Of a stretch of DNA of 29,073 bases, positions 123 through 19,180 are shown piece after piece (position 1 is the first letter of the stretch; each line of letters begins with the position of its first letter). Below the pieces are notes generated by a model. That model had not been told where the DNA came from. It saw only the letters and a program-made list of their open reading frames with translations, and ran no database searches. This DNA comes from a virus (taxonomy: Duplodnaviria; Heunggongvirae; Uroviricota; Caudoviricetes). Location: IMG/VR virus record IMGVR_UViG_2778261396_000002. One strand, written 5' to 3'. The position numbers and the translations under genes were made by a program.

Positions 123-1571
123 GATGTCAGAATGCTGATTAACCAGGGTATTTCCCGCGTAGTTCCAGATGAACTTAATGGGCACATCCAGTTTATCTTT
201 GCCGCGGACGCCGTCGCGGATTGCCGTCATTTGCGGACCATGATCGATAGCATCTGTCCAGCTGAAGCAGGAGATTGACGTTTTGACCGGATTATCCAGC
301 ACCGGCAGGCGCTCTATGGTAATGGTATAGGTCGACTCACGCGCGCCACTATTTCCGCCGCTGATGCCGACATTGCCCGTCAAAATAGGCAACATAGCAA
401 TAGCGCGTGCAGTCAGCTCGCCGTTTGCCTGGCGTTGCGGCCCCCAGCCCTGGCAGATATAAGCGGGTTTTGCTGTGCCAATTTCACGCGCCAGTTTGAT
501 GATACGGTCTACCGGGATACCGGTAATTTGCGAAGCCCACTGCGGCGTTTTCGCTGTTTTATCGTCACCTTCACCAAGAATATAGGCTTTATAGTGACCA
601 TTTTTTGGTGCATCTGCGGGTAAGGTTTTTTCGTCATAGCCGACGCAGTATTTATCGAGAAAAGGTTGATCAACGAGATTTTCGTTAATCAATACCCAGG
701 CAATCCCCGCAACCAGCGCGGCATCGGTGCCCGGGCGAATAGGAAGCCATTCATCTTCACGACCAGCAGCCGTATCGGTATATCGCGGATCGATAACAAT
801 CATTTTGGCGTTCGATTTCTCGCGCGCTTTTTCAAGAAGATAAGTGATGCCACCGCCGCTCATGCGGGTTTCTGCCGGGTTGTTACCAAACATCACGACC
901 AGCTTGCTGTTTTCAATATCCGTGGTGCTGTTGCCATCATTACTGCCGTAGGTGTAGGGCATGGCACAGGAAATTTGCGCGGTGCTGTAGGAGCCATACT
1001 GATTGAGTGAACCGCCGTAGCAGTTCATCAGGCGTTTGACCGCCGAGGCTGATGGCGAAGAGCGGGTCATATTGCCGCCAACAATCCCCGAAGAGTACTG
1101 AATATATACAGCCTCATTGCCATATTGTTCGACGGTTTTTTTCAGGCTACTGGCGATAGTATCCAGGGCTTCATCCCAGCTAATCCGTTCGAATTTGCCT
1201 TCACCGCGTTTACCCACGCGTTTCATTGGGTAATTCAAGCGATCGGGATGATTAATACGCCGGCGGATGGAGCGACCGCGCAAACAGGCGCGTACCTGAT
1301 GGTTGCCGTACTCATCGCTGCCGGTATTGTCAGTTTCCACCCAGGTCACTTCATTATCTTTAACATGTAGACGAAGTGCACAGCGGCTACCACAGTTGAC
1401 GGAACAGGCACCCCAGACCACTTTTTCGCGGGCCTGTTGTACCGCTGCTGCTGCACTGCGCAGGGTAAACGGCAAAGAAAAACCGCCTGCAGCCAGCGCC
1501 AGAGAACCTATCGCGGTAGATTTAACGAGTGTTCTGCGGCTGATGCCCACCATTCGTTCATATTTGGACAT
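123..1571 (-). pseudogene. ynfE: DMSO-reductase-family molybdopterin oxidoreductase catalytic subunit (YnfE-like), N-terminal 483 codons, interrupted by IS1 at position 122/123
   Basis: ORF 42..1571(-) starts MSKYERMVGISRRTLVKS… with twin-arginine (SRRTLVK) signal and Cys-rich N-terminal cluster; family members are ~800 aa; frame runs into IS1 sequence after …TLVNQHSDI; position next to ynfD. Confidence 0.8.
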
Positions 1572-1769
1572 AACTCACTCCCTGTTCTTTATCGTTATAT
1601 AAAAGTTTATATATTGAATATTTAGCGCGCTAACAATAGAGTGAGTCTACCCATTTTGGGTTAAGAATTATTAATCCATATCAATAGAAGGGTATGAGTA
1701 ATAAGGTGGGATTATGTTGTATGTTCAAATCGCCGGATGTGTCGTATCCGGCGTTCAGTCGATAATGTA

Positions 1770-2075
1770 TTACTGCGGTTCGGCAGGCGCGCCATCCTGG
1801 GTAGACTGCGCGGGAGCAGAGACGTTACCGCTGGTGGTGCGGGTGTAGAGAATTTTATGCGTATCATTAGCACAATGCCCGACGACCTGGGAATCAGGCT
1901 GATCAACCTGGTCATTGGGTACAATACTTAATGTGAAGCTGCTTTCGGGTACGCCATTATTGATAATGCGCTGTGATATATCGCTCTGTATGCGCTCACA
2001 GGATCCCGGCGCGGCGAGTACTGCGGGTGAGGCGAGGGCGAGCAGAAGCGCGGCACAGCAGGTTGAGAGTTTCAT
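1770..2075 (-). CDS. ynfD: DUF1161-type small secreted protein YnfD (101 aa)
   Basis: ORF translation MKLSTCCAALLLALASPAVLAAPGSCERIQ… with signal peptide; start at second Met, preceded by AAGGAG; ORF track 1770..2117. Confidence 0.8.
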   Translation of the reverse strand: MKLSTCCAALLLALASPAVLAAPGSCERIQSDISQRIINNGVPESSFTLSIVPNDQVDQPDSQVVGHCANDTHKILYTRTTSGNVSAPAQSTQDGAPAEPQ

Positions 2076-2182
2076 CATAAGCTCCTTACGCGAAGATAAC
2101 TTCTTTAAGCATAGCATTTAACGTGTAAAGTACTGTATTTGCTACTATGATTGAGAATCATCTCTACTCTCTGGTGACTGTT

Positions 2183-2893
2183 GTGAAATACAAATTACTA
2201 CCATGCTTACTCGCGATATTCCTCACAGGATGTGACCGCACAGAGGTAACACTTTCATTTACCCCTGAGATGGCCAGTTTCTCTAATGAATTCGATTTTG
2301 ATCCGCTGCGTGGTCCGGTAAAAGATTTCACTCAGACATTAATGGATGAGCAAGGTGAAGTGACGAAACGTGTTTCTGGGACTTTGTCGCAAGAAGGCTG
2401 TTTTGATTCACTCGAATTACTGGATCTGGAAAATAATACCGTGGTCGCTCTGGTACTGGACGCCAATTATTACCGTGATGCCGAGACGCTGGAGAAGAGA
2501 GTACGTTTACAGGGAAAATGCCAGCTAGCAGAATTACCTTCTGCCGGGGTGAGTTGGGAAACCGATGATAATGGCTTCGTGATTAAAGCCAGCAGCAAAC
2601 AAATGCAGATGGAATATCGCTATGATGATCAGGGTTATCCACTGGGTAAAACCACGAAAAGTAACGACAAAACATTATCTGTCAGCGCCACGCCATCAAC
2701 GGACCCGATCAAAAAATTAGATTACACAGCGGTTACTTTACTGAATAATCAACGAGTTGGTAATGTAAAACAGAGCTGTGAATATGACAGTCACGCCAAT
2801 CCGGTGGACTGTCAGCTGATCATTGTTGATGAAGGAGTAAAACCCGCCGTCGAACGGGTTTACACCATCAAAAATACAATCGATTATTATTAA
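2183..2893 (+). CDS. ynfC: Lipoprotein YnfC (UPF0257), 236 aa from GTG start
   Basis: ORF 2147..2893; canonical lipoprotein signal (V/M)KYKLLPCLLAIFLTGC begins at GTG 2183; upstream ATG 2147 is an alternative start. Confidence 0.75.
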   Translation: MKYKLLPCLLAIFLTGCDRTEVTLSFTPEMASFSNEFDFDPLRGPVKDFTQTLMDEQGEVTKRVSGTLSQEGCFDSLELLDLENNTVVALVLDANYYRDAETLEKRVRLQGKCQLAELPSAGVSWETDDNGFVIKASSKQMQMEYRYDDQGYPLGKTTKSNDKTLSVSATPSTDPIKKLDYTAVTLLNNQRVGNVKQSCEYDSHANPVDCQLIIVDEGVKPAVERVYTIKNTIDYY

Positions 2894-2895
2894 TG

Positions 2896-3456
2896 CTATT
2901 GTGCGGTCGGCTTCAGGAGAGTCTGACCCGGTGTTTTGTGCTCTGCCAGATACTGATGCTGGAATATACACATGCGAATGGCATTACGATATTGACCATT
3001 AATAAAAAACTCATGCATCAATTCACCTTCAACCGTAAAGCCAAGCTTGCGGTAAATGTGAATCGCTTTTTCATTCTCTTTATCGACGATCAGATACAAC
3101 TTATAGAGATTGAGAACGGTGAAGCCATAGTCCATTGCTAATTTGGCGGCACGGGTTGCCAGACCTTTCCCCTGATACTCCGGGGAGATAATTATCTGAA
3201 ATTCTGCGCGGCGATGTACATGGTTAATTTCCACCAGCTCCACCAGACCGGCTTTTTCGCCGTCACATTCCACCACAAAGCGCCGTTCGCTCTGATCGTG
3301 AATATGCTTATCATACAGATCAGAGAGTTCAACAAAGGCTTCGTAGGGTTCCTCAAACCAGTAACGCATCACACTGGCGTTATTGTCGAGTTGATGTACA
3401 TAGCGTAAATCTTCACGCTCCAGCGGGCGTAGCTTAACACTGTGGGCGCTTGGCAT
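2896..3456 (-). CDS. speG: Spermidine N1-acetyltransferase SpeG (186 aa)
   Basis: ORF translation [41 protein letters not shown]… GNAT fold, matches recalled SpeG. Confidence 0.95.
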
Positions 3457-3490
3457 AACGTGTCCTTACATTCCTTAAATCAATAACAGG

Positions 3491-3832
3491 TTAGGGGGTA
3501 ATAACGCGGCCAGTTCGACGGTCCAGGCAGCGCAAAGTATTTGGCTCCCAGTAGGCATTGATGTTGGCGCTTTGCTCACATTTATCTCGGTTATCAAAAG
3601 CGGCGTCGGCTTTATCCCACTCTTTTTCAGTGCGTTTATTCACTTTCTGGCGCAGATTGCGCGTGTCATTCCATTGCTCTTTTTCCATAGCGGCGTGCTG
3701 GCGGCTTTGTGCACTGTCGCCAGACTCAATCACCAGTTTGTTAGTTTCGGCATGAACAGTTGTGCTCAATGCCAGTGCGCAAGGCAGCAGAAAAGCGAGC
3801 AGGCCGATTCGTTTGCTGAGAGTGATTTTCAT
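3491..3832 (-). CDS. ynfB: UPF0482 secreted protein YnfB (113 aa)
   Basis: ORF translation with N-terminal signal peptide [28 protein letters not shown]; synteny upstream of speG. Confidence 0.85.
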
Positions 3833-3966
3833 AATTCATTCCCTGTATGAATGATTAAAGGTGATTCTACACCATCCACTGCGAACGCAAAACGTACCAG
3901 GAGGGTGTTTATATTGATGATATTATGTCGCCCTATAACTATACATGATGTCAATAAGTGACAAAG

Positions 3967-4293
3967 ATGATTAAAACAACGTTACTATTTTTTGCTACTG
4001 CGCTGTGTGAAATTATTGGATGCTTTCTGCCCTGGTTGTGGTTAAAACGAAACGCCAGTATCTGGCTGTTGCTTCCGGCGGGGATTTCACTGGCGCTGTT
4101 TGTTTGGTTGTTAACGTTGCATCCTGCGGCGAGTGGGCGTGTTTACGCGGCTTATGGTGGCGTTTATGTCTGCACGGCGTTGATGTGGCTGCGCGTTGTG
4201 GATGGCGTGAAACTAAGTCTTTATGACTGGACGGGGGCGTTGATTGCGCTTTGCGGCATGTTGATCATTGTTGCGGGCTGGGGGCGCACGTAG
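3967..4293 (+). CDS. ynfA: UPF0060 inner-membrane protein YnfA (108 aa)
   Basis: ORF 3958..4293 (GTG) contains [26 protein letters not shown]… hydrophobic 4-TM protein; ATG at 3967. Confidence 0.85.
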
Positions 4294-4498
4294 GAACATA
4301 AATCCATTTTATCAATAAGATACGAGGAAGTGTCAGCTGACAAAAGGTATTCTATTTCATCTTTTGTCAACCATTCACAGCGCAAATATACGCCTTTTTT
4401 TGTGATCACTCCGGCTTTTTTCGATCTTCATACTTGTATGGTAGTAGTTCAGCTGCGTAGATTTCATGCATCACGACAAGCGATGCAAGGAATCGAAC

Positions 4499-5713
4499 AT
4501 GAAGATCGTAAAGGCTGAAGTTTTTGTTACCTGTCCGGGGCGTAATTTCGTCACGTTAAAAATCACCACTGAGGACGGTATTACGGGCCTTGGGGATGCC
4601 ACCCTCAATGGACGTGAGCTTTCCGTGGCCTCTTATTTGCAGGATCACCTTTGTCCGCAGCTTATTGGTCGCGATGCGCACCGTATCGAAGATATCTGGC
4701 AGTTTTTCTATAAAGGTGCTTACTGGCGTCGCGGTCCGGTTACGATGTCGGCCATTTCAGCGGTTGATATGGCGCTGTGGGATATTAAAGCCAAAGCTGC
4801 CAACATGCCGCTTTACCAGTTACTCGGCGGCGCGTCTCGTGAAGGGGTGATGGTTTATTGCCATACCACCGGTCACAGTATTGATGAAGCTCTGGATGAT
4901 TATGCCCGTCATCAGGAGCTGGGATTCAAAGCCATCCGCGTGCAGTGCGGAATCCCTGGTATGAAAACCACCTACGGCATGTCGAAAGGTAAAGGTCTGG
5001 CTTATGAACCCGCAACCAAAGGACAGTGGCCGGAAGAGCAGCTGTGGTCGACGGAGAAATACCTCGATTTCATGCCGAAATTGTTTGACGCGGTACGTAA
5101 CAAGTTTGGTTTTAATGAACATTTGCTGCATGACATGCACCATCGCTTAACGCCTATTGAAGCGGCGCGCTTTGGTAAAAGCATTGAAGATTATCGCATG
5201 TTCTGGATGGAAGACCCGACGCCTGCGGAAAACCAGGAATGCTTCCGTCTCATTCGCCAACATACCGTCACACCCATCGCAGTGGGTGAAGTCTTCAACA
5301 GCATCTGGGACTGCAAACAACTGATTGAAGAGCAACTCATCGATTATATCCGCACCACGCTGACCCATGCAGGCGGAATTACCGGTATGCGCCGGATTGC
5401 CGATTTTGCTTCGCTGTATCAGGTACGTACTGGCTCACACGGTCCTTCCGATTTGTCACCAGTCTGCATGGCTGCGGCGCTGCACTTTGATCTGTGGGTC
5501 CCCAATTTCGGTGTCCAGGAATACATGGGTTATTCCGAACAAATGCTCGAAGTCTTCCCGCACAACTGGACTTTCGATAACGGCTATATGCATCCGGGAG
5601 ACAAACCGGGTCTTGGTATCGAATTCGATGAAAAGCTGGCGGCGAAATATCCCTATGAACCTGCTTATCTACCAGTCGCACGTCTGGAAGATGGCACGCT
5701 GTGGAACTGGTAA
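4499..5713 (+). CDS. rspA: Starvation-sensing protein RspA, enolase-superfamily mannonate dehydratase-like (404 aa)
   Basis: ORF 4466..5713; internal ATG 4499 with AAGGAA SD gives [40 protein letters not shown]…. Confidence 0.9.
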
Positions 5714-5724
5714 GGAGTAAGATA

Positions 5725-6744
5725 ATGAAAAGCATATTAATTGAAAAACCGAATCAACTGGCGATTGTCGAACGTGAAATACCCACCCCGTCAGCGGGTG
5801 AAGTACGAGTAAAAGTGAAACTTGCCGGAATTTGTGGTTCAGATAGCCATATTTATCGTGGGCATAATCCTTTTGCGAAATATCCGCGCGTCATTGGTCA
5901 TGAATTCTTTGGCGTCATTGATGCAGTGGGTGACGGCGTGGAAAGCGCCAGAGTCGGTGAACGTGTTGCTGTCGATCCGGTGGTCAGCTGTGGGCATTGC
6001 TATCCGTGCTCTATAGGTAAACCGAACGTTTGTACGACACTTGCTGTATTAGGTGTGCACGCTGACGGTGGTTTCAGTGAATATGCCGTGGTTCCGGCAA
6101 AAAATGCGTGGAAAATTCCTGAAGCAGTGGCCGATCAATATGCGGTGATGATCGAACCTTTTACCATTGCGGCTAACGTTACCGGTCATGGTCAACCGAC
6201 TGAAAATGATACCGTTCTGGTTTATGGTGCCGGTCCAATCGGCCTGACGATCGTTCAGGTATTAAAAGGCGTCTATAACGTTAAAAATGTGATTGTTGCC
6301 GATCGCATTGATGAACGACTGGAAAAAGCGAAAGAGAGCGGGGCTGACTGGGCGATTAATAACAGCCAGACACCGCTTGGCGAGATTTTCACTGAAAAAG
6401 GCATCAAGCCGACATTAATTATCGATGCGGCTTGTCATCCTTCTATCCTGAAAGAGGCCGTAACGCTGGCTTCTCCAGCGGCACGTATTGTATTGATGGG
6501 CTTCTCCAGTGAACCGTCTGAAGTGATTCAGCAAGGAATTACCGGAAAAGAACTCTCTATTTTCTCTTCACGCTTAAATGCAAATAAATTCCCGGTCGTT
6601 ATCGACTGGTTAAGTAAAGGGTTAATTAAACCAGAAAAATTAATTACCCATACGTTTGATTTCCAGCATGTTGCTGATGCCATTAGTTTATTTGAACAGG
6701 ATCAAAAACATTGCTGCAAAGTCTTACTCACTTTTTCTGAATAA
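5725..6744 (+). CDS. rspB: Zn-dependent alcohol dehydrogenase-family protein RspB (339 aa)
   Basis: ORF 5701..6744; ATG 5725 after TAAGGAG gives MKSILIEKPNQLAIVEREIP…; GHEFFGV and GAGPIGL Rossmann motifs. Confidence 0.9.
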   Translation: MKSILIEKPNQLAIVEREIPTPSAGEVRVKVKLAGICGSDSHIYRGHNPFAKYPRVIGHEFFGVIDAVGDGVESARVGERVAVDPVVSCGHCYPCSIGKPNVCTTLAVLGVHADGGFSEYAVVPAKNAWKIPEAVADQYAVMIEPFTIAANVTGHGQPTENDTVLVYGAGPIGLTIVQVLKGVYNVKNVIVADRIDERLEKAKESGADWAINNSQTPLGEIFTEKGIKPTLIIDAACHPSILKEAVTLASPAARIVLMGFSSEPSEVIQQGITGKELSIFSSRLNANKFPVVIDWLSKGLIKPEKLITHTFDFQHVADAISLFEQDQKHCCKVLLTFSE

Positions 6745-6801
6745 TACCAATAACGGCGAGTAAGTAGTACGCATCTTACCTCTTTTTTAGAGATAACCAT
6801 T

Positions 6802-6912
6802 ATGACAATAGAAAAACACGAAAGAAGCACTAAGGATTTGGTGAAAGCAGCAGTATCGGGATGGCTGGGCACTGCGCTTGAATTTATGGATTTCAAGAGT
6901 CATGCGTGTTAA
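6802..6912 (+). pseudogene. ydfJ: 5' fragment of an MFS transporter gene (ydfJ-like) truncated at the prophage junction
   Basis: ATG 6802: MTIEKHERSTKDLVKAAVSGWLGTALEFMDFKSHAC* – MFS N-terminal signature ends 36 codons in, immediately before the integrase gene. Confidence 0.5.
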
Positions 6913-6931
6913 CTATTTGATAAATATTAAA

Positions 6932-8227
6932 TTAATTTTTCATTGCTTCGTTATGGGGCATGGTTGGGGCAAACTCGCTTAACTGTGTATTTAACAAAGC
7001 TACCTGTGCATTATTGTTTTCAGACATCCATTTTCCGTATACCTGAAATACCATTTGCGCATCTGCATGGCCCATCTGGTTTGCTATAAATGCCGGGTTA
7101 GCACCAGCTGTCAGCGACCAGCAGGCATAAGTATGTCTCGACTGATATGATTTTCGATGGCGGAGTCCGGCACGTTTTATCGCTGCGTCCCACATCTGCC
7201 TTATTGAGTCAACGGTAAAATGGTCACCATAATTTTTTACTCTCGCTGACACTTCAGGTTGAAAAACAAAGGTGCATTTTTGTTTTTCTGTTCTGCCATA
7301 CTCTCTGAGGTGAACATCAATGATATGCTCTTTGCTCAGTCTCGTTAATGTCATCTGACTCCGGAGAGCGTCGATTGCTGGCTTAATAAGATGAATGACC
7401 CGATTGGTTCCCGCCTGTGTTTTTGGTACCGTGAAACGGTCTTTTGCTAAATTTCTCCTGATCATCATTGTTCCATTTTTCAGATCTATGTCCTCCCATC
7501 CAAGTGCACACAGCTCACCAGGGCGAACTCCAGTATAAACAGAAACACACCATAAATTTTTTGCTTGCTGATTTCTGCACGCATCGATAAGACGGATAAA
7601 TTCTTCCCGCGAAAGAGGATCCGGAATGGTTCTTGATTCCTTTAATGGCGAGATCCCCTTAAACGGATTATCTGCCAGGTAACCGTTATCAACACCAAAC
7701 TGGAACACGGCGTTAAGATTTGTCATGTAATTATTTACAGTTACAGCCGATCTCCCTGGTTGTGTAACAATATAGTTACTTTTGGGGATCTGGTATCCAG
7801 TCAGTAACTCTTTACGAACCTCCAGTAATTTTTCTTTATTAATCGATGAGGCAAGATTTTTTTCACCGATTATGCTCAGGATATTTTTGATGACGGCACG
7901 GTATGTGTTGAGTGATGTTTTGGCGACTTCAGTTTCTTTCAGTGCCAGAAATTTTTCAGCCAGTTCTTTTATGGTTAAATCTTGTCGGGCCTCACCAAAT
8001 TTTTCCAGATTGCGTGAGGAGGGAAACTGTTTTGCATAGTCGAAAACACCAGTTTTTATTGCGTAACAAACAGAGGAGCGTAGTTCACCTGCAACGCGCC
8101 TGTTTTTTGCTGTGTCAGGAACCCCCAGATTTTCCCTGACTCTTACGTCTTTATAAACAAACCAGATACGTAATTTCCCTCCATGGTTTTCCACGCCTGT
8201 CGGATATTTCATTTCAACTTCTCTCAT
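6932..8227 (-). CDS. intQ: Prophage tyrosine integrase (lambda-type), apparently intact, 431 aa
   Basis: ORF translation; C-terminal catalytic region …RHTYACWSLTAGANPAFIANQMGHADAQMVFQVYGKW… (R..H..Y); alternative start at Met6 (MKYPTG) with better SD. Confidence 0.88.
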   Translation of the reverse strand: MREVEMKYPTGVENHGGKLRIWFVYKDVRVRENLGVPDTAKNRRVAGELRSSVCYAIKTGVFDYAKQFPSSRNLEKFGEARQDLTIKELAEKFLALKETEVAKTSLNTYRAVIKNILSIIGEKNLASSINKEKLLEVRKELLTGYQIPKSNYIVTQPGRSAVTVNNYMTNLNAVFQFGVDNGYLADNPFKGISPLKESRTIPDPLSREEFIRLIDACRNQQAKNLWCVSVYTGVRPGELCALGWEDIDLKNGTMMIRRNLAKDRFTVPKTQAGTNRVIHLIKPAIDALRSQMTLTRLSKEHIIDVHLREYGRTEKQKCTFVFQPEVSARVKNYGDHFTVDSIRQMWDAAIKRAGLRHRKSYQSRHTYACWSLTAGANPAFIANQMGHADAQMVFQVYGKWMSENNNAQVALLNTQLSEFAPTMPHNEAMKN

Positions 8228-8246
8228 TAGTTAGTGTGGTTTTTAG

Positions 8247-8498
8247 TCAAGTAAGATGACGTCTTGGTCTCGCTGATGCCTGGCGCTCAATCCAGCGATC
8301 AATTTCTTCCAGGTTGTAAAAGCATGGACTGTTATCCCATGGCATACCGTCATGAGCGACATGCTTATATTCCCTTCCTTCCATAAACGATTTTTCCCGG
8401 GCCTTTTTTAACGTACCTTTTTTTATTCCTTTCAGCGCAATTAACTGCTCTTCGGATACCCATTTGCCGGGAGAGACAATCATGATTACTTCGCTCAT
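8247..8498 (-). CDS. Putative excisionase/Xis-like small protein (83 aa)
   Basis: Small basic ORF immediately upstream of int on same strand; position only, no recognised motif. Confidence 0.5.
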   Translation of the reverse strand: MSEVIMIVSPGKWVSEEQLIALKGIKKGTLKKAREKSFMEGREYKHVAHDGMPWDNSPCFYNLEEIDRWIERQASARPRRHLT

Positions 8499-8570
8499 CG
8501 ATTTCTTTATCTCTTACATCAGACGAGCGCCGGTTGCAGAATACCAGTCACAACCGGCGACAGTTGAACA

Positions 8571-11042
8571 TTAAGAATCAGCCTGACTCGGGATCAGTTT
8601 TTGCCAGATAACTGAAACGTATTTTGCCTGGTAACGGGCGTCATCAAGTGCATTATGGCGCTCACCTTCGAATGGAATAGCCGTTCTGGCATCGAAGTCT
8701 ATGGCTTTCCCCAGCTCAACGATTGTGCGTACATCGCGATCGTTGTAGTAACGCCACGGGCAGGGGATCCCCTGCCGTTCGTATGAACGGCGCAAAATCG
8801 TGTTGTCGAAGTTGGCTCCATTTCCCCAAACCTGAACAAAAAATTCACCGGAGTTTTCGTCGATAAATTCTCGCAATTGTAACAGTGCATCATCTAACGG
8901 GATTTCATCGGTCATAATGGCAGATTGCGCTTCGCGTGATTGCTTAAGCCACCATTTAATGGTGTCCCGATCAATGACTCCGCCAGCAGTTTCCAGATCG
9001 ATAGTCTTACTAAATTCCGGTCCCATATCTCCGGTTTGCGGATCGAAAAATATTGCACCTATTGAGATGATCGGGGCATCAGGATTTTTTCCCATGGTTT
9101 CAAGGTCGATCATTAGATGGTCACACGTCCTGCTGGTGGATGTGATTTCGTGATGACCGTTCACCTTAATTGGGTGATCTGCCGTCTCGCCAGTTTCATT
9201 ATCGCTATTGTGATGCTGATTGCCGCCAGTGTTCTCCTTGTGTGGATGTTCAGCGCCTTCCATTTCCTCCGGATCATCTTCCTGAACTTCAACCTGATAC
9301 TCTTCATCGAATGTTTCTTGGTATGTTGCGTCGCCCATCACCGCGCCACAATCAGGGCAGTTGCCGCCGCCGGTCTGACCGCAGGCGGTGCAGACTTTTT
9401 CCACTTCCTGTTGCGCTACTGGTTCAGGCTGTTTCGTTTCTGGCTCGTTTTGTAACGCATTTGGACTGTTTTGTTCCGCTTTTTGGTAGTTCCGTTCCGA
9501 TTCATGCTGGTTCTGGTTCACAGAATCGCGGGTCTGGAGCCCCTTAACCCATTTCGGATCATTCGGGTCACTAATCCCTTCAACAAATTCACCACGTGAT
9601 GCAGCAAGCAACTTATCGGCGTCAGGCTGGCTGATATTGGCTGCCTGCATAATTTTGTTTACTTCGTCAGCGGTAACTTTTATCGGCTCTGGTTGTTCTG
9701 AATCTTCAGCGGTATCTACATTTTGCGGTAAGCCCGTGTATGTGCCATTTTTTCGGGCAAAATATTCTTCTTTTGTGATTTCAGTGGCGCCAGCAGCCAG
9801 TGCCTTATCCAGACCAGAGAGTTTGTTTGCGCGACCGTATTTTTCTCCGTCCTTATCTGCGAAGAGGAAATAGAACGGCCCCTCACGCTCTACAGATGGT
9901 TCAGCTTCCGGCGCGGTTTCATTTTTTGGGATATCAGATACCTCAGTTTCCACTGCATCAGTTTGTGTTTCTGATGACTGGAGAACATCAACAGTGCCCA
10001 GGTCTGTTTCTTCATTCTCAAACACGCCCTTTGTCGTCAGGTATTCGCAGATATATTTGTTCAGTGCTACGGGATCTTTGTGAATGTCGATCGGACGCTC
10101 ACGGACAAGGCCAAAAATAGTTTGGCGGTCGTAGCGAAGGGCATCAGGCTGTTTGCGCATTGATGCCGAGATACGCTTCCAGTCTTCGCGGTCGTTGTCG
10201 ATAACTTCTTTTTTTGCCCAGCGATGGATGCTGCCGTCAATGTTTCCGGCATCCACATCACTAGGCCAGAGAGCGTAGGCCAGTTCGTCATCCAGTGTTT
10301 TCCATGTCTGCTTGTATTCGCGATGAATGGCAGCAATGACCGGGCTGATTTTTCCTGTTGAATTTTCAGTGTACTGTTGATTGGCTCTGGCGCGGGCGAG
10401 ATCAACAACAGACGTGTATTTTCCGGTTTCCTTGCGTTCACCTTCGCGACGTTTTTTCCAGATGCGCATCTCTGCCTGAATTTCGGGCCATTTAGCACCA
10501 GGAATACATTTATGCTTAACCCACCCAATGGCGTGCAACTTAAGCTCCGGATACATGGCGTTAACTTCTGGCATTTTCATCAACGCTTCAACGATATGTC
10601 CGTCGAATGTTGCCATGTCTTCCTGCAACAATTCCTGTGCGCTAATAACCATATCAACGGTGATGTTTTCACATGTGTCGAACTTAACCATGACAGCGTT
10701 CTGTACTTCAGGGGCCAGCTTGTCAAAAGTGACGTTCATCGGATCGGATTCAGTCTCAACCGGGACAAAAGAAGCAGACTCCTCATCCCAGCGGTTTTCC
10801 TGCATATATTCAGCATCCCATGAATCGAGGGCAGGGCGGGGTATGCCAGGTTTATCCTCGCAGACAATAAATTTATAAGCGCAGTCCTGAGCAGCCGGAT
10901 AATGTTCCAGGAATTGCCAGTGAAATTTTGCTCGAGCACGGCGTTCGTCGCCAGCTTCAATGGCTGTGGCTACAGCCACAGCGCCTTCTTCCCTTGTTGC
11001 CAGTTCGTCAGGAATAGCGGCGCAAATAAAGACTTTACTCAT
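8571..11042 (-). CDS. ydfE: Large prophage exonuclease: N-terminal domain, acidic linker, CxxC…CxxC zinc ribbon, C-terminal DnaQ-like DEDDh 3'-5' exonuclease (823 aa); full-length counterpart of the K-12 ydfE fragment
   Basis: ORF 8571..11078; start ATG 11042 (MSKVFICAAIPDE…) with GAGG SD; C-terminus has Exo I (MIDLETMG), Exo II (WGNGANFD), Exo III (HNALDDARYQ) motifs. Confidence 0.7.
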   Translation of the reverse strand: MSKVFICAAIPDELATREEGAVAVATAIEAGDERRARAKFHWQFLEHYPAAQDCAYKFIVCEDKPGIPRPALDSWDAEYMQENRWDEESASFVPVETESDPMNVTFDKLAPEVQNAVMVKFDTCENITVDMVISAQELLQEDMATFDGHIVEALMKMPEVNAMYPELKLHAIGWVKHKCIPGAKWPEIQAEMRIWKKRREGERKETGKYTSVVDLARARANQQYTENSTGKISPVIAAIHREYKQTWKTLDDELAYALWPSDVDAGNIDGSIHRWAKKEVIDNDREDWKRISASMRKQPDALRYDRQTIFGLVRERPIDIHKDPVALNKYICEYLTTKGVFENEETDLGTVDVLQSSETQTDAVETEVSDIPKNETAPEAEPSVEREGPFYFLFADKDGEKYGRANKLSGLDKALAAGATEITKEEYFARKNGTYTGLPQNVDTAEDSEQPEPIKVTADEVNKIMQAANISQPDADKLLAASRGEFVEGISDPNDPKWVKGLQTRDSVNQNQHESERNYQKAEQNSPNALQNEPETKQPEPVAQQEVEKVCTACGQTGGGNCPDCGAVMGDATYQETFDEEYQVEVQEDDPEEMEGAEHPHKENTGGNQHHNSDNETGETADHPIKVNGHHEITSTSRTCDHLMIDLETMGKNPDAPIISIGAIFFDPQTGDMGPEFSKTIDLETAGGVIDRDTIKWWLKQSREAQSAIMTDEIPLDDALLQLREFIDENSGEFFVQVWGNGANFDNTILRRSYERQGIPCPWRYYNDRDVRTIVELGKAIDFDARTAIPFEGERHNALDDARYQAKYVSVIWQKLIPSQADS

Positions 11043-11134
11043 TTGTTTTAACCTCATGACAGATTTAAGGATGAACAAATCCCTGCCATTGCTGGCATAT
11101 AAGAATGAAACCGGATATTTATTACGGAACTGTT

Positions 11135-11326
11135 TTAAAGACCTGCCGGGATTTCGATATTATCCTGGTGAATAACTTTATCGACCGGGTAACAGTTACC
11201 GGGAATTTTCTGTTCGGTTGCTGCAGTCATACACTCCTGCATTGTCCTGTGAACACTGACTGCAATATCAACTGGCTCTCCGGAAACAAGAAAAACTGTC
11301 AGAACAAGCACAAATGCTGAATTCAT
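11135..11326 (-). CDS. ydfD: Small prophage protein YdfD (63 aa)
   Basis: Translation MNSAFVLVLTVFLVSGEPVDIAVSVHRTMQECMTAATEQKIPGNCYPVDKVIHQDNIEIPAGL; start overlaps dicB stop (ATGA). Confidence 0.8.
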   Translation of the reverse strand: MNSAFVLVLTVFLVSGEPVDIAVSVHRTMQECMTAATEQKIPGNCYPVDKVIHQDNIEIPAGL

Positions 11327-11511
11327 TGTGCACATCCTTTTGGCATCAGACGTAAACGAGCCAGCATTGAAACAATGCATATTTTATTTAATAGCTCCCG
11401 TTCTTGTTTTCTCTTGTTAATGGCATCTTCAGTAAATACTGGGTTACTGATAGTGACACCAATTTCAAAACAACCTTCAGACGTATTAACGTTTGGTAAT
11501 AACGTTTTCAT
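11323..11511 (-). CDS. dicB: Cell-division inhibitor DicB (62 aa)
   Basis: Translation MKTLLPNVNTSEGCFEIGVTISNPVFTEDAINKRKQERELLNKICIVSMLARLRLMPKGCAQ matches recalled DicB. Confidence 0.9.
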   Translation of the reverse strand: MKTLLPNVNTSEGCFEIGVTISNPVFTEDAINKRKQERELLNKICIVSMLARLRLMPKGCAQ

Positions 11512-11685
11512 TATCGCGTCCTCAACAATGAATTTTGTGATGCAGTGCCTGGTGCCTCCAGGTGACGTTAACCAGTTAACAATTAACGCCGGATACAGAG
11601 AATCCACCCATAACACTGTTTTTGGTTTTAACTGTTCCGCGTGCGCTCAGCCGCATTCACCACATCACAAAATTCACTTTAAAAA

Positions 11686-11738
11686 GGGCGGCAGAGCAGT
11701 CACGGAGTAAAACTGATACCGCCAAACGTCACCAGAAA
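11686..11738 (-). ncRNA. dicF: DicF small RNA (53 nt; ftsZ-targeting)
   Basis: Reverse complement reads TTTCTGGTGACGTTTGGCGGTATCAGTTTTACTCCGTGACTGCTCTGCCGCCC followed by T-run, matching recalled DicF; lies between ydfC and dicB. Confidence 0.85.
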
Positions 11739-12078
11739 ATTGATAACAGAGGGCGTTGCAGCGGGGTTGTCACTTAAGCGTATGGTCAACCTGACAACCC
11801 GGTGTCCTCAACGGGGAAGGAATAACCCCGCCATACTTACCGCCGCGCCATTTCGCGGGTTGCCACAACCGGAAGCGCACGGTCGACGAAAATTTAACGA
11901 CAGGCTATCTATGAACCAGCTACCTCGCCGTGCGCTTTCGCGTTATGGTCTGACTTTTCAGGGAAATATCCTTTCAGTAAACTGTCAGTTCCGGATGCGC
12001 ACCCGTGTCCGGCGCACGCACTCCACCTCACCCGTGGAGAACTCCTTAATTACTAACCTTAGCTTTGTTGATTAGCTA

Positions 12079-12297
12079 CTAACGCGGGTATGTAATCATT
12101 CTGGCAATGCTTAATGCCGCTGCTTTTTCCAGATTGGTGATATCCTGCTCCAGAGCGGACAGATTTTCAGCCTGCTTAGCCCTGGCTTCAGTAGCCCATT
12201 TCAGATCCTGCGCTGCATTAATTTTCTGGCGCATCCACTCATAAAGTTCATCATCGGTATAGTCTGGCGCGATGATGACGGGTTCTCGTTTCTGCAT
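12079..12297 (-). CDS. ydfC: dicB-operon small protein YdfC (72 aa)
   Basis: ORF translation MQKREPVIIAPDYTDDELYEWMRQKINAAQDLKW…; synteny ydfA-ydfB-ydfC-dicF-dicB. Confidence 0.7.
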   Translation of the reverse strand: MQKREPVIIAPDYTDDELYEWMRQKINAAQDLKWATEARAKQAENLSALEQDITNLEKAAALSIARMITYPR

Positions 12298-12326
12298 ACT
12301 GATTCCTCGCGGTGCTGTTTCGCTTA

Positions 12327-12455
12327 TCAGCCGTTAGATTTTGCCGAACTGGAAAGCGCCTGTTTAAATTCGCTGAAGCTGAGAGCTTCTTCGCCTTCGG
12401 CAAGGCCTTCGAAGTATTCTTCGTAAGCCTTTTCCATGATTGTGTCGAAATCCAT
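12327..12455 (-). CDS. ydfB: dicB-operon small protein YdfB (42 aa)
   Basis: Manual translation of minus strand: MDFDTIMEKAYEEYFEGLAEGEEALSFSEFKQALSSSAKSNG*; ATG follows GGTGGGTGAT. Confidence 0.7.
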   Translation of the reverse strand: MDFDTIMEKAYEEYFEGLAEGEEALSFSEFKQALSSSAKSNG

Positions 12456-12456
12456 A

Positions 12457-12612
12457 TCACCCACCTGAATTTCTTTCCAGCCAGCGACGCGCTCCAGATT
12501 CGGTTTTAAACGTTTTGCTTTTGGTATACGTCATTTCGGTGAACGTGCCGTCCTGGTTTGGAAACACGCCACATACCAGAGATTCGTTGTTGCCAAGATC
12601 GATAGTATCCAT
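12457..12612 (-). CDS. ydfA: dicB-operon small protein YdfA (51 aa)
   Basis: Internal Met of ORF 12457..12666: MDTIDLGNNESLVCGVFPNQDGTFTEMTYTKSKTFKTESGARRWLERNSGG. Confidence 0.75.
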   Translation of the reverse strand: MDTIDLGNNESLVCGVFPNQDGTFTEMTYTKSKTFKTESGARRWLERNSGG

Positions 12613-12726
12613 GCTGACCTCATTTCCCCTTAACGCCGGGGTAGCGGAACTGTTTGCTGAGAACACCGTGCGGTGTCTTGATGGAAAATAATTTAGAATA
12701 ACCTAACATGAGAGGCAAGTGTTTTT

Positions 12727-12746
12727 TGTTAGATTGATCTAACAAA
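12727..12746. promoter_or_regulatory. Palindromic operator TTGTTAGAT-TG-ATCTAACAA in dicB-operon promoter region (putative DicA site)
   Basis: Perfect 9+9 inverted repeat between ydfA start and dicA stop; shares TGTTAG…CTAACA half-sites with second site at 13238-13255. Confidence 0.5.
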
Positions 12747-12780
12747 AAGGGTGGGCGCAACTAATCACTTGAAAAGAATG

Positions 12781-13188
12781 TTATTTTATTGATTTATTTT
12801 TACGCGCTTTAAGCATTTCTTCGAAGAGTTTGTTGAAGTTTTCTACTCTTGCGCGCATTTCAGACAGCAAGGCTTCCTGCTCGGAAGATGGAAGAGCATC
12901 GAATAATTCGATCAATTCTTTGTGGTTGGGAGTTAGCTCTGTTTCCACATGAAGTTCTTGTGCAGGCACTGGTGCCTTGTCTTCGTCACCAAACATTAGC
13001 CATGTAGGTGAGCACTTCAGAGCATCCGCTAAAGCAAACAATCGTTTTCCGACTGGCTGGGTTTCGTCTCTTTCCCATTGTGAAATTGTGACGTGAGCAA
13101 CTCCAGCGAGGCGCGCGGCTTCTCGTTGTGTTAAGCGTAATTCTTTTCGTCGCGCCAGAACTCGCTGGCCCAGGGTTCTTGTATCCAT
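12781..13188 (-). CDS. dicA: HTH (Xre/cI-like) repressor DicA homolog (135 aa)
   Basis: ORF translation; HTH LTQREAARLAGVAHVTISQWE; C-terminal …LKCSPTWLMFGDEDK…EMRARVENFNKLFEEMLKAR resembles DicA; N-terminus diverged from K-12 as recalled. Confidence 0.8.
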   Translation of the reverse strand: MDTRTLGQRVLARRKELRLTQREAARLAGVAHVTISQWERDETQPVGKRLFALADALKCSPTWLMFGDEDKAPVPAQELHVETELTPNHKELIELFDALPSSEQEALLSEMRARVENFNKLFEEMLKARKNKSIK

Positions 13189-13210
13189 AGTTAGGTAATT
13201 CTAATTTTTC

Positions 13211-13255
13211 TTGACTTAGGTATCCCGCGCACAATAATGTTAGAAAAATCTAACA
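13211..13255 (+). promoter_or_regulatory. dicC promoter (-35 TTGACT, 17-bp spacer, -10 ATAATG) overlapped by operator TGTTAGAAAAATCTAACA (13238-13255)
   Basis: Sigma70-like hexamers read directly; palindrome immediately downstream of -10; located in divergent dicA/dicC intergenic region. Confidence 0.5.
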
Positions 13256-13269
13256 AGAGGGGGGCTTTG

Positions 13270-13497
13270 ATGCTTAAAGTTGACGCAATTACTTTTTTTG
13301 GCAGCAAAACAAAGCTTGCCAATGCCGCAGGAGTGAGGCTGGCAAGTGTTGCTGCTTGGGGGATACTGGTTCCTGAAGGTCGCGCGATGCGTCTACAGGA
13401 GGCATCTGGCGGGGAGCTTCAGTATGATCCCAAAGTTTATGATGAATATCGTAAGACGAAGCGGGCGGGGCGGTTGAACAATGAAAATCACTCCTGA
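13270..13497 (+). CDS. dicC: Cro-like regulator DicC (75 aa)
   Basis: Internal ATG of ORF 13237..13497: MLKVDAITFFGSKTKLANAAGVRLASVAAWG…EGRAMRLQEASGGELQYDPKVYDEYRKTKRAGRLNNENHS. Confidence 0.85.
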   Translation: MLKVDAITFFGSKTKLANAAGVRLASVAAWGILVPEGRAMRLQEASGGELQYDPKVYDEYRKTKRAGRLNNENHS

Positions 13498-14002
13498 ACA
13501 GGCTCGTGAGGCTCTGGATGCCTGGATATGTCGACCAGGAATGACACAGGAGCAGGCGACGATATTAATCACTGAAGCATTCTGGGCTTTGAAAGAGCGC
13601 CCGAACATCGATGTTCAGCGTGTCACAGATGAAGGTGGCGCGGTTGATCAGCGAGCGCTTGGTGTTAATCGAGTGAAGATATTCGAACGCTGGAAGGCTA
13701 TCGATACCAGGGATAAGCGTGAAAAGTTCACGGCGCTAGTGCCTGCGATTATGGAGGCTATCCGGATTAGTGATTTCAGGTTGTATCGTGAAATTACTGA
13801 CGGAAAAAGCATCACGTGCATGATCGCCGGGTTAAACAAAGAATATGGCGATGTGGTGGAGTCCGGACTGCTTTTTGCTGATCCTGCCGTAGTGGATCGT
13901 GAAACTGACGAACTTATAGAAAAAGCAATTGCTTTCAAGCTTGCGTATCGACAGCAATACCAACAAAAAGCTGGATGGAATTATGAGCCTTCTTTTTGCT
14001 GA
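13481..14002 (+). CDS. YdaT-like prophage protein (cII-position gene), 173 aa
   Basis: ORF translation MKITPEQAREALDAWICRPGMTQEQA…; position directly after cro-like gene; family assignment from memory only. Confidence 0.45.
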   Translation: MKITPEQAREALDAWICRPGMTQEQATILITEAFWALKERPNIDVQRVTDEGGAVDQRALGVNRVKIFERWKAIDTRDKREKFTALVPAIMEAIRISDFRLYREITDGKSITCMIAGLNKEYGDVVESGLLFADPAVVDRETDELIEKAIAFKLAYRQQYQQKAGWNYEPSFC

Positions 14003-14948
14003 ACGCCCACTGGTTATAAACACGCAGCTGGCAATGAAAATTGGCTTAAACGAAGCCATTGTTTTGCAACAACTGCACTACTGGTTGAGAGATACCAACT
14101 CCGGCATGGAATGTGATGGTGTTCGCTGGATTTATAACACAACGGAACAATGGCTGGAACAGTTCCCATTCTGGTCAGAGTCAACGTTAAAGCGCGCGTT
14201 TGCAAGTCTGAAAACGCTGGGGCTTTTGCGTTGTGAAAAGCTCAATAAATCAAAGCGCGATATGACCAATTTCTACACGATCAACTATGGGAGCGAGCTT
14301 TTAGATGGTGGCAAATTGAGCGAATCCATCGGTTCAAAATGCGCCGCTCCATCAGGTCAAAATGACACGATGGAAGAGGTCAAAATGAAACGCTCCATTG
14401 GTTCAAAACGACCCAATGTCATCGGGTCAAAATGGCCTGATGATCTTACAGAGAATACAACAGAGATTACTACAGAGAATAAAAACACTTTTCGTCCGGA
14501 AGCTTCGCAACCGGACCCGCAGACGACTGAACAGGATTTTTTAACCCGGAACTCCGACGCGGTTGTGTTTAGTGCGAAAAAACGCCAGTGGGGTAGCAGG
14601 GAGGATTTGGCGTGTGCGCAGTGGATCTGGGGGCGGATCGTGGGTCTCTACGAACAGGCAGCCAGTGATGATGGCGAGATCATGCGACCAAAAGAGCCTA
14701 ACTGGACTGCCTGGGCCAATGACGTGCGCACAATGCGGATGCTGGATGGCAGAAGCCACAGACAAATTTGCGAAATGTTTGGTCGGGTTCAGCGAGATCC
14801 ATTCTGGGTAAAAAACATCATGAGCCCGTCAAAGCTCCGCGAAAAATGGGACGAACTGGTCATCCGCCTGGGACGTTCACCTGTACAGCGTTGTGTTAAT
14901 CATATTTCTGAACCGGATACAGAAATTCCGCCTGGTTTCAGAGGATAA
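13983..14948 (+). CDS. Phage replication initiation protein (lambda O-like, HTH N-domain), 321 aa
   Basis: ORF 13929..14948; ATG 13983 MSLLFAERPLVINTQLAMKIGLNEAIVLQQLHYWL…; repeated SIGSK peptide motifs encoded by DNA iterons. Confidence 0.7.
   Translation: MSLLFAERPLVINTQLAMKIGLNEAIVLQQLHYWLRDTNSGMECDGVRWIYNTTEQWLEQFPFWSESTLKRAFASLKTLGLLRCEKLNKSKRDMTNFYTINYGSELLDGGKLSESIGSKCAAPSGQNDTMEEVKMKRSIGSKRPNVIGSKWPDDLTENTTEITTENKNTFRPEASQPDPQTTEQDFLTRNSDAVVFSAKKRQWGSREDLACAQWIWGRIVGLYEQAASDDGEIMRPKEPNWTAWANDVRTMRMLDGRSHRQICEMFGRVQRDPFWVKNIMSPSKLREKWDELVIRLGRSPVQRCVNHISEPDTEIPPGFRG
14327..14436 (+). repeat. Five direct iteron-like repeats (core GGT(T)CAAAA(T/C)G, ~23-bp spacing) inside the replication gene – candidate prophage origin
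   Basis: Cores at about 14331, 14355, 14378, 14400, 14424 read directly from sequence. Confidence 0.55.
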
Positions 14949-14988
14949 GTGTTGATTTCAGGTCATGAGGTAATTTTAAGGGGGACTT

Positions 14989-15411
14989 GTGGCAAAAGTT
15001 TTTACACAAGAAGAGCGGGAAAAAATTAAATGGCAGGTGGTGGAACTCGTGCGCCAGAGCGGCCGTGAGACGTTACGGCAACTGGAAGCTAAAACAGGTG
15101 CGACTAGATATCTGATGAGCGTTCTTGCCAGAGAGCTGGTAGCCAGTGGCGATGTATACAACTCCGGCTACGGGTTATTCCCCTCTGAACAGGCGCGTAA
15201 GGACTGGCAAAACGCCCGCAAAAAACTCTCGAGGGCAAAGGTGAAGAAACCTGCTGTGGTTGATCCGGACCTTATCTGGTCATCACCTGACGGAGAAATA
15301 CGTCGCTACGACAGTCGCCTAAACATAATCTGTCGCGAGTGCCGGAAGAGCGAAGTTATGCAGCGCATACTGGCTTTCTATCAGGGTAATTTTCAGGACG
15401 TGGCGCAGTGA
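14989..15411 (+). CDS. Hypothetical prophage protein (140 aa, GTG start)
   Basis: ORF with AGGGGGA SD 4-5 nt upstream of GTG; stop overlaps next gene start (GTGA). Confidence 0.45.
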   Translation: MAKVFTQEEREKIKWQVVELVRQSGRETLRQLEAKTGATRYLMSVLARELVASGDVYNSGYGLFPSEQARKDWQNARKKLSRAKVKKPAVVDPDLIWSSPDGEIRRYDSRLNIICRECRKSEVMQRILAFYQGNFQDVAQ

Positions 15412-15854
15412 GTGCACCGGCAACCATTCTTGATATGTGCTGTGGCAGCCGCATGTTCTGGTTCGATAAGTCTGACGAACGGGCGATATTCAGCGATATC
15501 AGAAAAGAAGGATACACATTACGCAATGGGAGACGCTTGATTATCAGCCCTGACATTATCGCAGATTTTCGTGCATTATCATTTGCAGACGCATCTTTTT
15601 CGATGGTTGTATTAGACCCTCCGCATCTTGAGAGTGTTGGTGATAACGCCTGGATGGGAAAGAAATATGGACGGCTGAATAAAGATGCCTGGCGTGATGA
15701 TTCGCGACAGAGATTTAAAGAAGCCTTTCGGGTGTTGAGGCCGCACGGCGTTCTGATTTTTTAATGGAATGAAACGCAAATACCGGTAAGCCAGATTCTG
15801 GCACTGACAGACAGAAAACCTGTTATCTGTCAACGAACAGGGAAAAAACGATAA
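15408..15854 (+). pseudogene. SAM-dependent (gamma-class-like amino-) methyltransferase remnant with in-frame TAA at 15762-15764
   Basis: Motif I-like LDMCCGSRMF and motif IV-like VVLDPPH; same frame continues after the TAA for 29 more codons; total still short for a DNA MTase. Confidence 0.4.
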
Positions 15855-16026
15855 AACCCACTGGATTATTTTTATGAAAGAGGCATCCAGTGAGTAGATT
15901 CGTAAGGCTACAGATACGTATATCTGAATAATTAAATTCAGTTCTGTAAATAAAATTTAATCCTTAACCGGATGGATTTCTGCACCCTCAGAACATCAGG
16001 AGGCCGCCCGAAAGGGCGGTAGTGAA

Positions 16027-16137
16027 ATGCGAAAGTTCAAAATTATTATTGAAACGGGAATAGCTGGTGGAGATTTTGAGGATGTATTCGAAGTGGACGA
16101 TGACGCAACACCTGAGGAAATTCATGACGGAGCATAA
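16027..16137 (+). CDS. Small acidic ORF (36 aa) preceded by AGGAGG and a GAAA-tetraloop hairpin
   Basis: ATG 16027 … MRKFKIIIETGIAGGDFEDVFEVDDDATPEEIHDGA*; below ORF-track size cutoff; manual translation. Confidence 0.3.
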   Translation: MRKFKIIIETGIAGGDFEDVFEVDDDATPEEIHDGA

Positions 16138-16186
16138 GAAATTTTCTTTAACTACTGCAATTACTCATACCACGAAATAAAAGACG

Positions 16187-16378
16187 ATGAGGAAGAACAA
16201 AGTGGCTGATTTTTGTTCAGCTAAATATAACATCAGTTTTGAAGAGCGGGATGAACTATTAATGGACTATGGTGAGTTACGCGGTGGAAGTGCTGCTGAT
16301 GTCGAATCCTAGCGTGATGACTATGAAGCGGGAAAAACTCCGGTCGAAGCATATTGTGATGAGTGGGGCGATGAATGA
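16187..16378 (+). pseudogene. Small ORF (63 codons) with in-frame amber TAG at 16310-16312
   Basis: MRKNKVADFCSAKYNISFEERDELLMDYGELRGGSAADVES*RDDYEAGKTPVEAYCDEWGDE*; stop overlaps next ORF start (ATGA). Confidence 0.35.
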
Positions 16379-19166: not shown

Positions 19167-19180
19167 AATACGGCTGTCAC

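Follow-up and report, generated by a model that had tools for sequence, protein, structure and literature searches.

The locus described here raises the question whether the left end of a prophage lying in ydfJ is a damaged relic, as in the cryptic prophage Qin of Escherichia coli K-12, or whether it has kept what is needed to leave the chromosome. The DNA is a stretch of 29,073 nucleotides (nt) from the IMG/VR record IMGVR_UViG_2778261396_000002, below called the window, and the segment in question is 6802-11078, which comprises the left attachment site (attL), the genes for an integrase (int) and an excisionase (xis), and an early-left exonuclease gene. This segment very likely represents the attL end of an undamaged, wild-type prophage Qin situated within ydfJ.

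Protein families were assigned using Pfam and PHROG and RNAs using Rfam, while gene integrity was judged by tblastn of the genes of Escherichia phage PhiR42_1 (PV340562.1, host ECOR13), a close relative described below. The coordinates of the features are collected in Table 1.

Identity of the Prophage

Downstream of the end of an insertion sequence (IS) of type IS1, the window contains ynfE', ynfD, ynfC, speG, ynfB, ynfA, rspA, and rspB, followed by the prophage. In K-12 MG1655 the order is rspB, ynfP, intQ (a pseudogene), insD7/IS2E, ydfE (a pseudogene), ydfD, dicB, and DicF, and the element is annotated as the cryptic prophage Qin (b1543-b1579, with ynfP as b4534). The insertion site, the attachment (att) core, the attL sequence, ynfP, and the gene order are all shared by the two. 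BLAST of the window against K-12 gives four blocks: 123-8091 (99.1% identity), 10276-12861 (97.2%), 13359-13760 (97.5%), and 18560-29073 (99.94%), and the identity is 97-99% across the C-terminal part of int and from ydfE through ydfA. The first-pass annotation of this DNA had proposed a Qin-like prophage integrated in ydfJ. The insertion in ydfJ beside rspB, the synteny (dicB/DicF, relBE, hokD, cspB/F/I, ydfT, and the lysis genes) and the near-identity to K-12 over the last block confirm this and go further; judged by its sequence, the element is Qin itself and not just Qin-like.

Window 8092-10275 (2.18 kb) is absent from K-12, where a 706-bp IS2E remnant is found instead. The missing DNA comprises the first ~40 codons of int, xis in full, and ~567 codons from the C-terminal part of the exonuclease gene, and because the IS2E remnant replaces it, intQ and ydfE are pseudogenes in K-12 and xis is absent. 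In the window none of the three minus-strand open reading frames (ORFs) is broken. The earlier suggestions that the K-12 end is decayed while the present one is not, and that int, xis, and the ydfE-class exonuclease are uninterrupted, thus both hold. Excision of K-12 Qin has been reported to be undetectable, which the authors ascribe to the inactive intQ (PMC3105296), in keeping with the IS2-associated loss just described. Window 13761-18559, containing the O-like initiator, DUF977, the methyltransferase, and the ISNCY remnant, is likewise missing from K-12; K-12 has a different dicA/dicC allele (window 12862-13358), and its late region is truncated.

The Attachment Site in ydfJ

The 36-codon ORF at the host/phage boundary, ynfP, is a hybrid. 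Its codons 1-31 are the N-terminus of YdfJ (MTIEK...EFMDF), while codons 32-36 (KSHAC) and the stop codon come from the P' arm of the phage. The first-pass annotation had recognized this ORF as the N-terminus of a transporter of the major facilitator superfamily (MFS), and the 31 ydfJ codons establish that it was right. It had further placed the stop codon of the ORF 20 bp before that of the integrase gene and the junction at roughly 6890-6930. The first figure is close, the actual gap being 19 bases (6913-6931); the given range does contain the junction, but at its left edge, since the host and phage sequences meet at 6894/6895.

The attachment site was defined by a four-way comparison, for which the window supplied attL, K-12 and E. 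coli UC4224 supplied attR, PhiR42_1 supplied attP, and natural empty sites supplied attB. A search for attR and the 3' part of ydfJ within the window found neither; the window ends at ynfO (corresponding to position 11847 of the compared K-12 Qin locus), and attR was for this reason taken from the two other strains, in which it is identical. Alignment to an uninterrupted ydfJ, a check suggested in the first-pass annotation, yields an 11-bp core, TTATGGATTTC. The core spans the YdfJ codons Met29-Asp30-Phe31, and the boundaries of the K-12 Qin feature coincide with its edges. When window 6500-6894 is joined to the K-12 ydfJ sequence downstream of the core, the resulting 873 nt are 100% identical to natural rspB-ydfJ loci, where the uninterrupted gene beside rspB is annotated 'MHS family MFS transporter YdfJ'. 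The rebuilt YdfJ has 455 residues and matches Pfam MFS_1, and the 36-codon ORF is thus in frame with full-length ydfJ.

On the phage side, the attP of PhiR42_1 equals the left arm of K-12 attR, the core, and the right arm of the window attL, base for base over 131 nt; the first 60 nt of the P' arm in the window are identical to its right arm. The attP is accordingly the exact reciprocal recombinant of attL and attR, as expected for Campbell-type integration, with attR taken from K-12 and UC4224 and not from the source strain.

It has been reported that lysogens lose 28 ydfJ codons (PMC6379469). Because the core covers Met29-Asp30-Phe31, a YdfJ of 427 residues starting at Met29 is annotated in lysogens, and this start agrees with the published loss. 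Nakamura et al. (2021; PMC8112680) state that the attP of a ydfJ prophage was amplified by PCR from the O26:H11 strain 11368, and give the att of ydfJ prophages as 18-19 bp based on an alignment of attB, attL, attR, and attP. The exact block found here is 11 bp, and tolerating one indel and one mismatch lengthens it to ~17-20 bp.

Integrase, Excisionase, and Candidate Arm Sites

The integrase reading frame has an upstream ATG at 8227 that would give 431 residues, while the RefSeq start at 8212 (MKYPTG) gives 426 and is preceded by the Shine-Dalgarno-like sequence GAGAGAAG. The protein has the two parts of a heterobivalent tyrosine integrase. Residues 4-67 match the full Pfam model of the arm-binding domain Arm-DNA-bind_2 (E=3.7e-22), and the Phage_integrase domain scores 66 bits against a cutoff of 27. 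Alignment to the Tn1549 Int (PDB 6EMY) locates the catalytic residues R230 (Arg-I), K264, Y356 at the His-II position, R359 (Arg-II), H382 (His-III), and the nucleophile Y392. None of these six residues varies among the integrases of BP-4795, VT1-Sakai, and Stx2_112808 (an Stx2d phage), which overall are 61-62% identical to the window Int. The protein is 100% identical to that of PhiR42_1, shares 422 of its 426 residues with that of phage Tritos, and is 99.5% and 99.1% identical to those of HannyBb and mEp460_ev081, respectively.

The tyrosine at His-II deserves attention, since replacement of this histidine in the RHRY tetrad could mean that the enzyme is catalytically dead. In the alignment, HAMR of the Tn1549 Int is indeed matched by YQSR in the window Int. 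However, BP-4795, VT1-Sakai, and Stx2_112808, phages that use other sites, all have the motif RKSYQSRHTYACW unchanged in their integrases, and two of these three records annotate an att duplication; the motif is also found in Tritos, HannyBb, and PhiR42_1. Both arginines, the lysine, His-III, and the nucleophilic tyrosine are all present. A dead integrase is therefore highly improbable, and Y356 was rejected as an inactivating lesion; it is a trait of the subfamily, invariant in five of its integrases including those of BP-4795 and VT1-Sakai. The catalytic set is in the state typical of the family, and the integrase can be regarded as intact, as had been proposed.

The product of xis aligns with positions 1-69 of the 70 in Pfam DUF1233 (E=1.6e-31) and with positions 1-79 of the 80 in phrog_539, and is by this similarity assigned to the DUF1233/phrog_539 family of excisionases. 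It is 100% identical to the Xis of PhiR42_1 and of Tritos.

The P' arm contains candidate binding sites for the N-terminal domain of the integrase. The heptamer TGGGGCA occurs three times in the window, and two of the copies (6954-6960 and 6965-6971), spaced by 11 bp, fall within the final codons of int at +60 and +71 relative to the core. The pair, read on the int strand as TGYCCCA N4 TGCCCCA, is kept in the int genes of yehV- and yecE-type Stx phages, whose arm-binding domains are nearly identical to that of the window Int. In the P arm of attP there is one copy and one near-copy of the motif, ~137 and ~113 bp from the core. These copies are probably arm-type Int sites. The tandem motif in the 3' end of int is conserved across the core specificities ydfJ, yehV, and yecE, and a constraint at the DNA level from P' arm sites may explain the invariant P..MPH tail of these integrases.

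The Early-Left Exonuclease

The exonuclease gene has two possible starts, a TTG at 11078 (835 residues) and an ATG at 11042 (823 residues), and encodes the full-length form of the K-12 pseudogene ydfE, of which K-12 retains only window 10276-11042. The protein is 100% identical to that of PhiR42_1. Residues 642-813 match positions 2-177 of the 177 in Rv2179c-like (PF16473; 226 bits, E=2.4e-67), and the DEDDh motifs IDLET, NFDNT, and HNALDD are seen in the translation; on this evidence the C-terminus is assigned to the DEDDh-type 3'-5' exonuclease domains. The first ~260 residues gave no match to a Pfam family.

In BLASTP against the K-12 RecE only residues 262-627 align, to RecE 278-592. Membership in the RecE/ExoVIII group was considered and rejected as far as the nuclease domain is concerned, since only this middle region aligns and the C-terminus is of the Rv2179c-like/RNase_T type. 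The label 'exodeoxyribonuclease VIII' in several phage records is likewise unjustified for the nuclease domain.

Distribution in E. coli

The frequency of the intact end was surveyed in 5,426 complete E. coli genomes. The attL junction, for which at least 80% of a 120-nt probe was required, was found in 2,716 of them, and an empty ydfJ site in 2,010. The 4.4-kb segment, counted when at least 80% of window 6700-11100 was present in one place, was found in 2,379 genomes, nearly all with at least 99% identity; IS elements lie within some of the matches, and the counts are accordingly no proof that all ORFs are whole. The segment is thus contiguous in ~88% of the genomes with the junction (2,379/2,716). 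The first-pass annotation implied that the intact state is rare, but it is the majority state. The undamaged arrangement is the norm in E. coli, and K-12 is the exception.

Related Phages and Prophages

The closest phage is PhiR42_1. Its Int, Xis, exonuclease, O, DUF977, Q, and lysis genes are ~100% or 100% identical to those of the window, and outside the immunity region its genome follows window 6879-29073 colinearly, with an identity of 98.7-99.9%. It differs in being a free, circularly permuted genome record with a contiguous attP, and in its immunity region. The genome is 48.7 kb and encodes a full lambda-like set of head and tail proteins. All 34 PhiR42_1 genes from int to ynfO were found in full length by tblastn (34/34), ynfO being cut by the window end, and only cI and cro differ among them. 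According to PMC13190303, which cites Brenes and Laub 2025, phages named in the pattern PhiRnn.n make up a panel of temperate relatives of lambda that has served in plaquing assays; a literature search on PhiR42 gave no match.

This comparison bears on the replication region, which had been described as decayed. That description is not borne out. Full-length copies are present of the genes for the cII-like protein, the O-like initiator, DUF977, and the methyltransferase, and they match their PhiR42_1 counterparts with 98-100% identity; for the O-like protein the identity is 100% with PhiR42_1, 99.4% with HannyBb, and 98.1% with mEp460_ev081. The sole decay is found at ~15.8-18.7 kb (DUF7167 and hypothetical pseudogenes, and an ISNCY transposase remnant), and it is common to PhiR42_1.

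The phages Tritos (OV696610), HannyBb (PP925841), and mEp460_ev081 (LR597641) contain the same early-left module (DicF, dicB, ydfD, exonuclease, xis, int, and attP). The Tritos copy matches window 6879-12650 with 98.7% identity. Both the O allele and the immunity region are different in Tritos, while the pairing of initiator and DUF977 is the same as in the window. The exact 11-bp core was not found in Tritos; its attP core is TTATGCATTTC, with one mismatch. Two further changes lie just beyond the core in the Tritos attP (7300-7345 of the compared sequence), and by its sequence Tritos may differ in integration site or efficiency. Qin is a lambdoid phage of the mEp460/PhiR42_1/Tritos type.

Among the 5,426 genomes the closest is UC4224, which is 99.6-99.7% identical and carries a ~49-kb Qin (NZ_CP104472.1 330844-379860) with a full lambda-like head and tail set and a correct attR. 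As a stage of decay, the Qin of UC4224 is intermediate, with PhiR42_1 on one side and the 20-kb K-12 remnant on the other.

Early Operon and Immunity

The genes ydfA-B-C, DicF, dicB, ydfD, exonuclease, xis, and int form a leftward operon with short gaps, in the same order as in the dicBF operon of K-12 and in Tritos. A simple scan for promoters and terminators in 6700-13400 gave fewer promoter-like matches than shuffled controls and no interpretable pI-like promoter.

When it comes to immunity, the window carries a third allele. Window 12862-13358 aligns with neither K-12 nor PhiR42_1; the repressor is 57% identical to the cI of PhiR42_1, and the Cro-type protein 86% to its cro product, while rem is identical to that of PhiR42_1. 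This implies, as far as can be judged from the sequence, a different immunity specificity on a near-identical phage backbone. The K-12 switch has been described as bistable and lacking a RecA-cleavage site, with Rem as the antirepressor that relieves it and with urea and heat, but not mitomycin C, as inducers, and the K-12 promoter dicBp as being spontaneously on in a subpopulation of the cells (bioRxiv 10.1101/2023.04.14.536235). Because the K-12 switch is not induced by mitomycin C, this agent may be the wrong inducer also here, and a mitomycin C test uninformative.

Possible Excision and Its Alternatives

The proposed course of events starts with a Campbell-type entry, in which the core in attP recombined with the identical 11 bp at ydfJ codons 29-31. 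The gene was thereby split into the promoter-proximal stub ynfP beside int and, at the far prophage end, a promoterless remainder from Met29 onward. The recombination module is of the lambda type, with a heterobivalent Int using Tyr392 as nucleophile, an excisionase of 83 residues, and probable TGGGGCA arm sites in both P and P'. Being the last genes of the leftward early operon, int and xis would be held off by the DicA-type repressor. On derepression, Int and Xis, together with the host proteins IHF and Fis, would recombine attL with attR, making ydfJ whole again and setting free the phage genome as a circle.

The sequence comparisons show what the element is, where its att core and junction lie, that its genes are whole, and that they are identical to genes in phage genome records; that the recombination module is active in this strain, on the other hand, is our inference. 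Excision competence of the window prophage is plausible because PhiR42_1, in whose record attP is contiguous, has an Int and a Xis 100% identical to those found here. Several points weigh against this picture. The window stops at ynfO (29073), short of attR and the late genes. In the UC4224 prophage the genes for portal, protease, and tape measure are frameshifted and an IS3 lies in tfa, which means that relatives may carry defects in other parts. The repressor is of another allele than the K-12 DicA that has been studied, and the K-12 dicB promoter is not induced by mitomycin C. The candidate arm-type sites are recognized by the position and conservation of a motif, and that PhiR42_1 forms plaques is gathered from its GenBank host field and the naming of the panel.

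It could be that the prophage is grounded despite an intact module, either by damage outside the window or by too little derepression of the operon, and that int and xis are intact only for want of time to decay. The position of attR outside the window and the lesions of UC4224 would agree with this, as would strain KL53, which has lost dicA through O and contains IS elements, the many mutated intQ copies among Qin matches noted in a review (PMC6379469), and a DicA-type repressor that lacks the RecA-cleavage domain, with a K-12 dicBp that does not respond to mitomycin C. However, defects in late genes of relatives stop virion production and leave excision unaffected, and neither UC4224 nor K-12 has a damaged attR. 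Over the 22 kb that can be seen, no gene is shorter than its PhiR42_1 counterpart, most genomes with the junction hold the segment contiguous, and dicBp is spontaneously on in some K-12 cells. A grounded prophage is considered unlikely.

The opposite extreme is a complete plaque-forming temperate phage, a 'living Qin' corresponding to PhiR42_1 with another immunity allele. The colinearity with PhiR42_1 outside the immunity region, the intact int-ynfO genes, including O, Q, and those for holin, lysozyme, and an Rz-like protein, and the full head and tail set of PhiR42_1 speak for it. The late half of the prophage lies beyond the window, though, and the closest chromosomal relatives (UC4224, KL53, and K-12) all have lesions or deletions in the late region. 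This reading is possible, but on the doubtful side. A wider proposal, which we put forward tentatively, is the following: Qin in most E. coli may be a circulating temperate phage with a functional recombination module and P' arm sites in the last int codons, the K-12 state would be a lineage-specific IS2 accident, and the cargo would be morons of a live phage with a non-SOS mode of induction by an antirepressor or bistable switch.

Much of this is already known, namely the location of Qin in ydfJ, the att site, the excision of a ydfJ prophage, and phages with an identical module. The finding has little import beyond correct annotation, in that the K-12 picture of Qin, with a dead integrase and no xis, is an exception, while phage records in GenBank carry an identical int-xis-exonuclease module. 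In the source strain ydfJ could be restored by excision, and the cargo of Qin (dicB, DicF, relBE, hokD, and the csp genes) may be mobile. Induction is better sought by derepressing the DicA-type switch than by mitomycin C alone. If it is true that Qin circulates, then DicB, DicF, RelBE, HokD, and CspB/F/I would be morons of a live phage.

Other Features of the Window

Table 1. Features of the window and sequences of the att junctions, with the basis of each assignment.
Feature	Position	Strand	Basis or sequence
ynfP, hybrid ORF at attL	6802-6912	+	ORF list; identical to K-12 ynfP b4534
att core, 11 bp	6884-6894	.	TTATGGATTTC; identical in attB, attL, attR, attP
attL, window			...GCGCTTGAAT-TTATGGATTTC-AAGAGTCATGCG...
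attR, K-12			...ACACCTGTGAA-TTATGGATTTC-CAGTTATATTCGC...
attR expected for source prophage			...AACACCTGTGAA-TTATGGATTTC-CAGTTATATTCGCTCGG; adjoining ydfJ codon 29
Junctions expected on excision			attP junction GTGAATTATGGATTTCAAGAGTCATGCG; attB junction GAATTTATGGATTTCCAGTTATATTCG
P' arm of attL	6895-6975	.	Identity to PhiR42_1 attP arm; candidate arm-type Int sites
int, lambda-type tyrosine integrase, 426 aa	6932-8212	-	Pfam Arm-DNA-bind_2 and Phage_integrase
xis, excisionase, 83 aa	8247-8498	-	Pfam DUF1233, phrog_539
Exonuclease, 823 aa	8571-11042	-	Pfam Rv2179c-like, phrog_2082
ydfD	11135-11326	-	Pfam DUF1482
dicB	11323-11511	-	Pfam DicB
DicF small RNA	11686-11737	-	Rfam, 76.7 bits
ydfC/ydfB/ydfA	12079-12666	-	tblastn of PhiR42_1 genes
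DicA-type repressor, 135 aa, HTH only	12781-13188	-	Pfam HTH_3
DicC/Cro-type gene	13270-13497	+	Pfam P22_Cro
cII-like/YdaT	13481-14002	+	phrog_163
O-like replication initiator	13983-14948	+	phrog_391, E=1e-91
DUF977	14989-15411	+	Full-length tblastn match
Methyltransferase	15408-15764	+	Full-length tblastn match

Outside the segment discussed above, a few further observations were made. Window 1-122 is the end of an IS1, 100% identical to IS1A/IS1B copies that are found in a median of 10 places per genome. The IS1 breaks ynfE, leaving an ORF (42-1571) of 509 residues compared with 808 in the K-12 protein. A match to the sok antitoxin RNA (17186-17357; Rfam, 104 bits) lies just upstream of an ISNCY-type transposase ORF (17431-18744; 437 residues with HTH and rve_3 domains), copies of which RefSeq marks as incomplete in relatives; both are present also in PhiR42_1, while K-12 lacks the region. 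Two matches to the cspA-type thermoregulator RNA (24203-24595 and 27105-27490) are located upstream of and overlapping the prophage genes cspB and cspI.

Comparison with Known Systems

The recombination module resembles that of lambda in consisting of a heterobivalent tyrosine integrase with an arm-binding N-terminal domain and a small excisionase. The order attP, int, and xis at the end of the leftward early operon is also the same, and the geometry of the candidate arm sites is similar. Compared with lambda, the arm-binding fold belongs to the family Arm-DNA-bind_2, the integrase has a tyrosine at His-II, and the excisionase belongs to DUF1233. The candidate sites in the P' arm overlap the end of the int coding sequence, and the repressor is of the short DicA/Gifsy type without a RecA-cleavage domain.

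The exonuclease occupies the same position in the early-left operon as RecE of the prophage Rac, to which its aligned residues 262-627 are 39% identical overall, with a much higher value at 470-620, and include a CxxC...CxxC stretch. However, the C-terminal 5'-3' nuclease domain of RecE is replaced by the Rv2179c-like domain, and in the ORF list no gene resembling recT or bet adjoins the exonuclease gene.

The PPydfJ prophages of Shiga toxin-producing E. coli are, according to PMC8112680, lambda-like and integrated in ydfJ as is the element described here, but they differ in carrying type III secretion system effector loci and often in occurring as tandem clusters.

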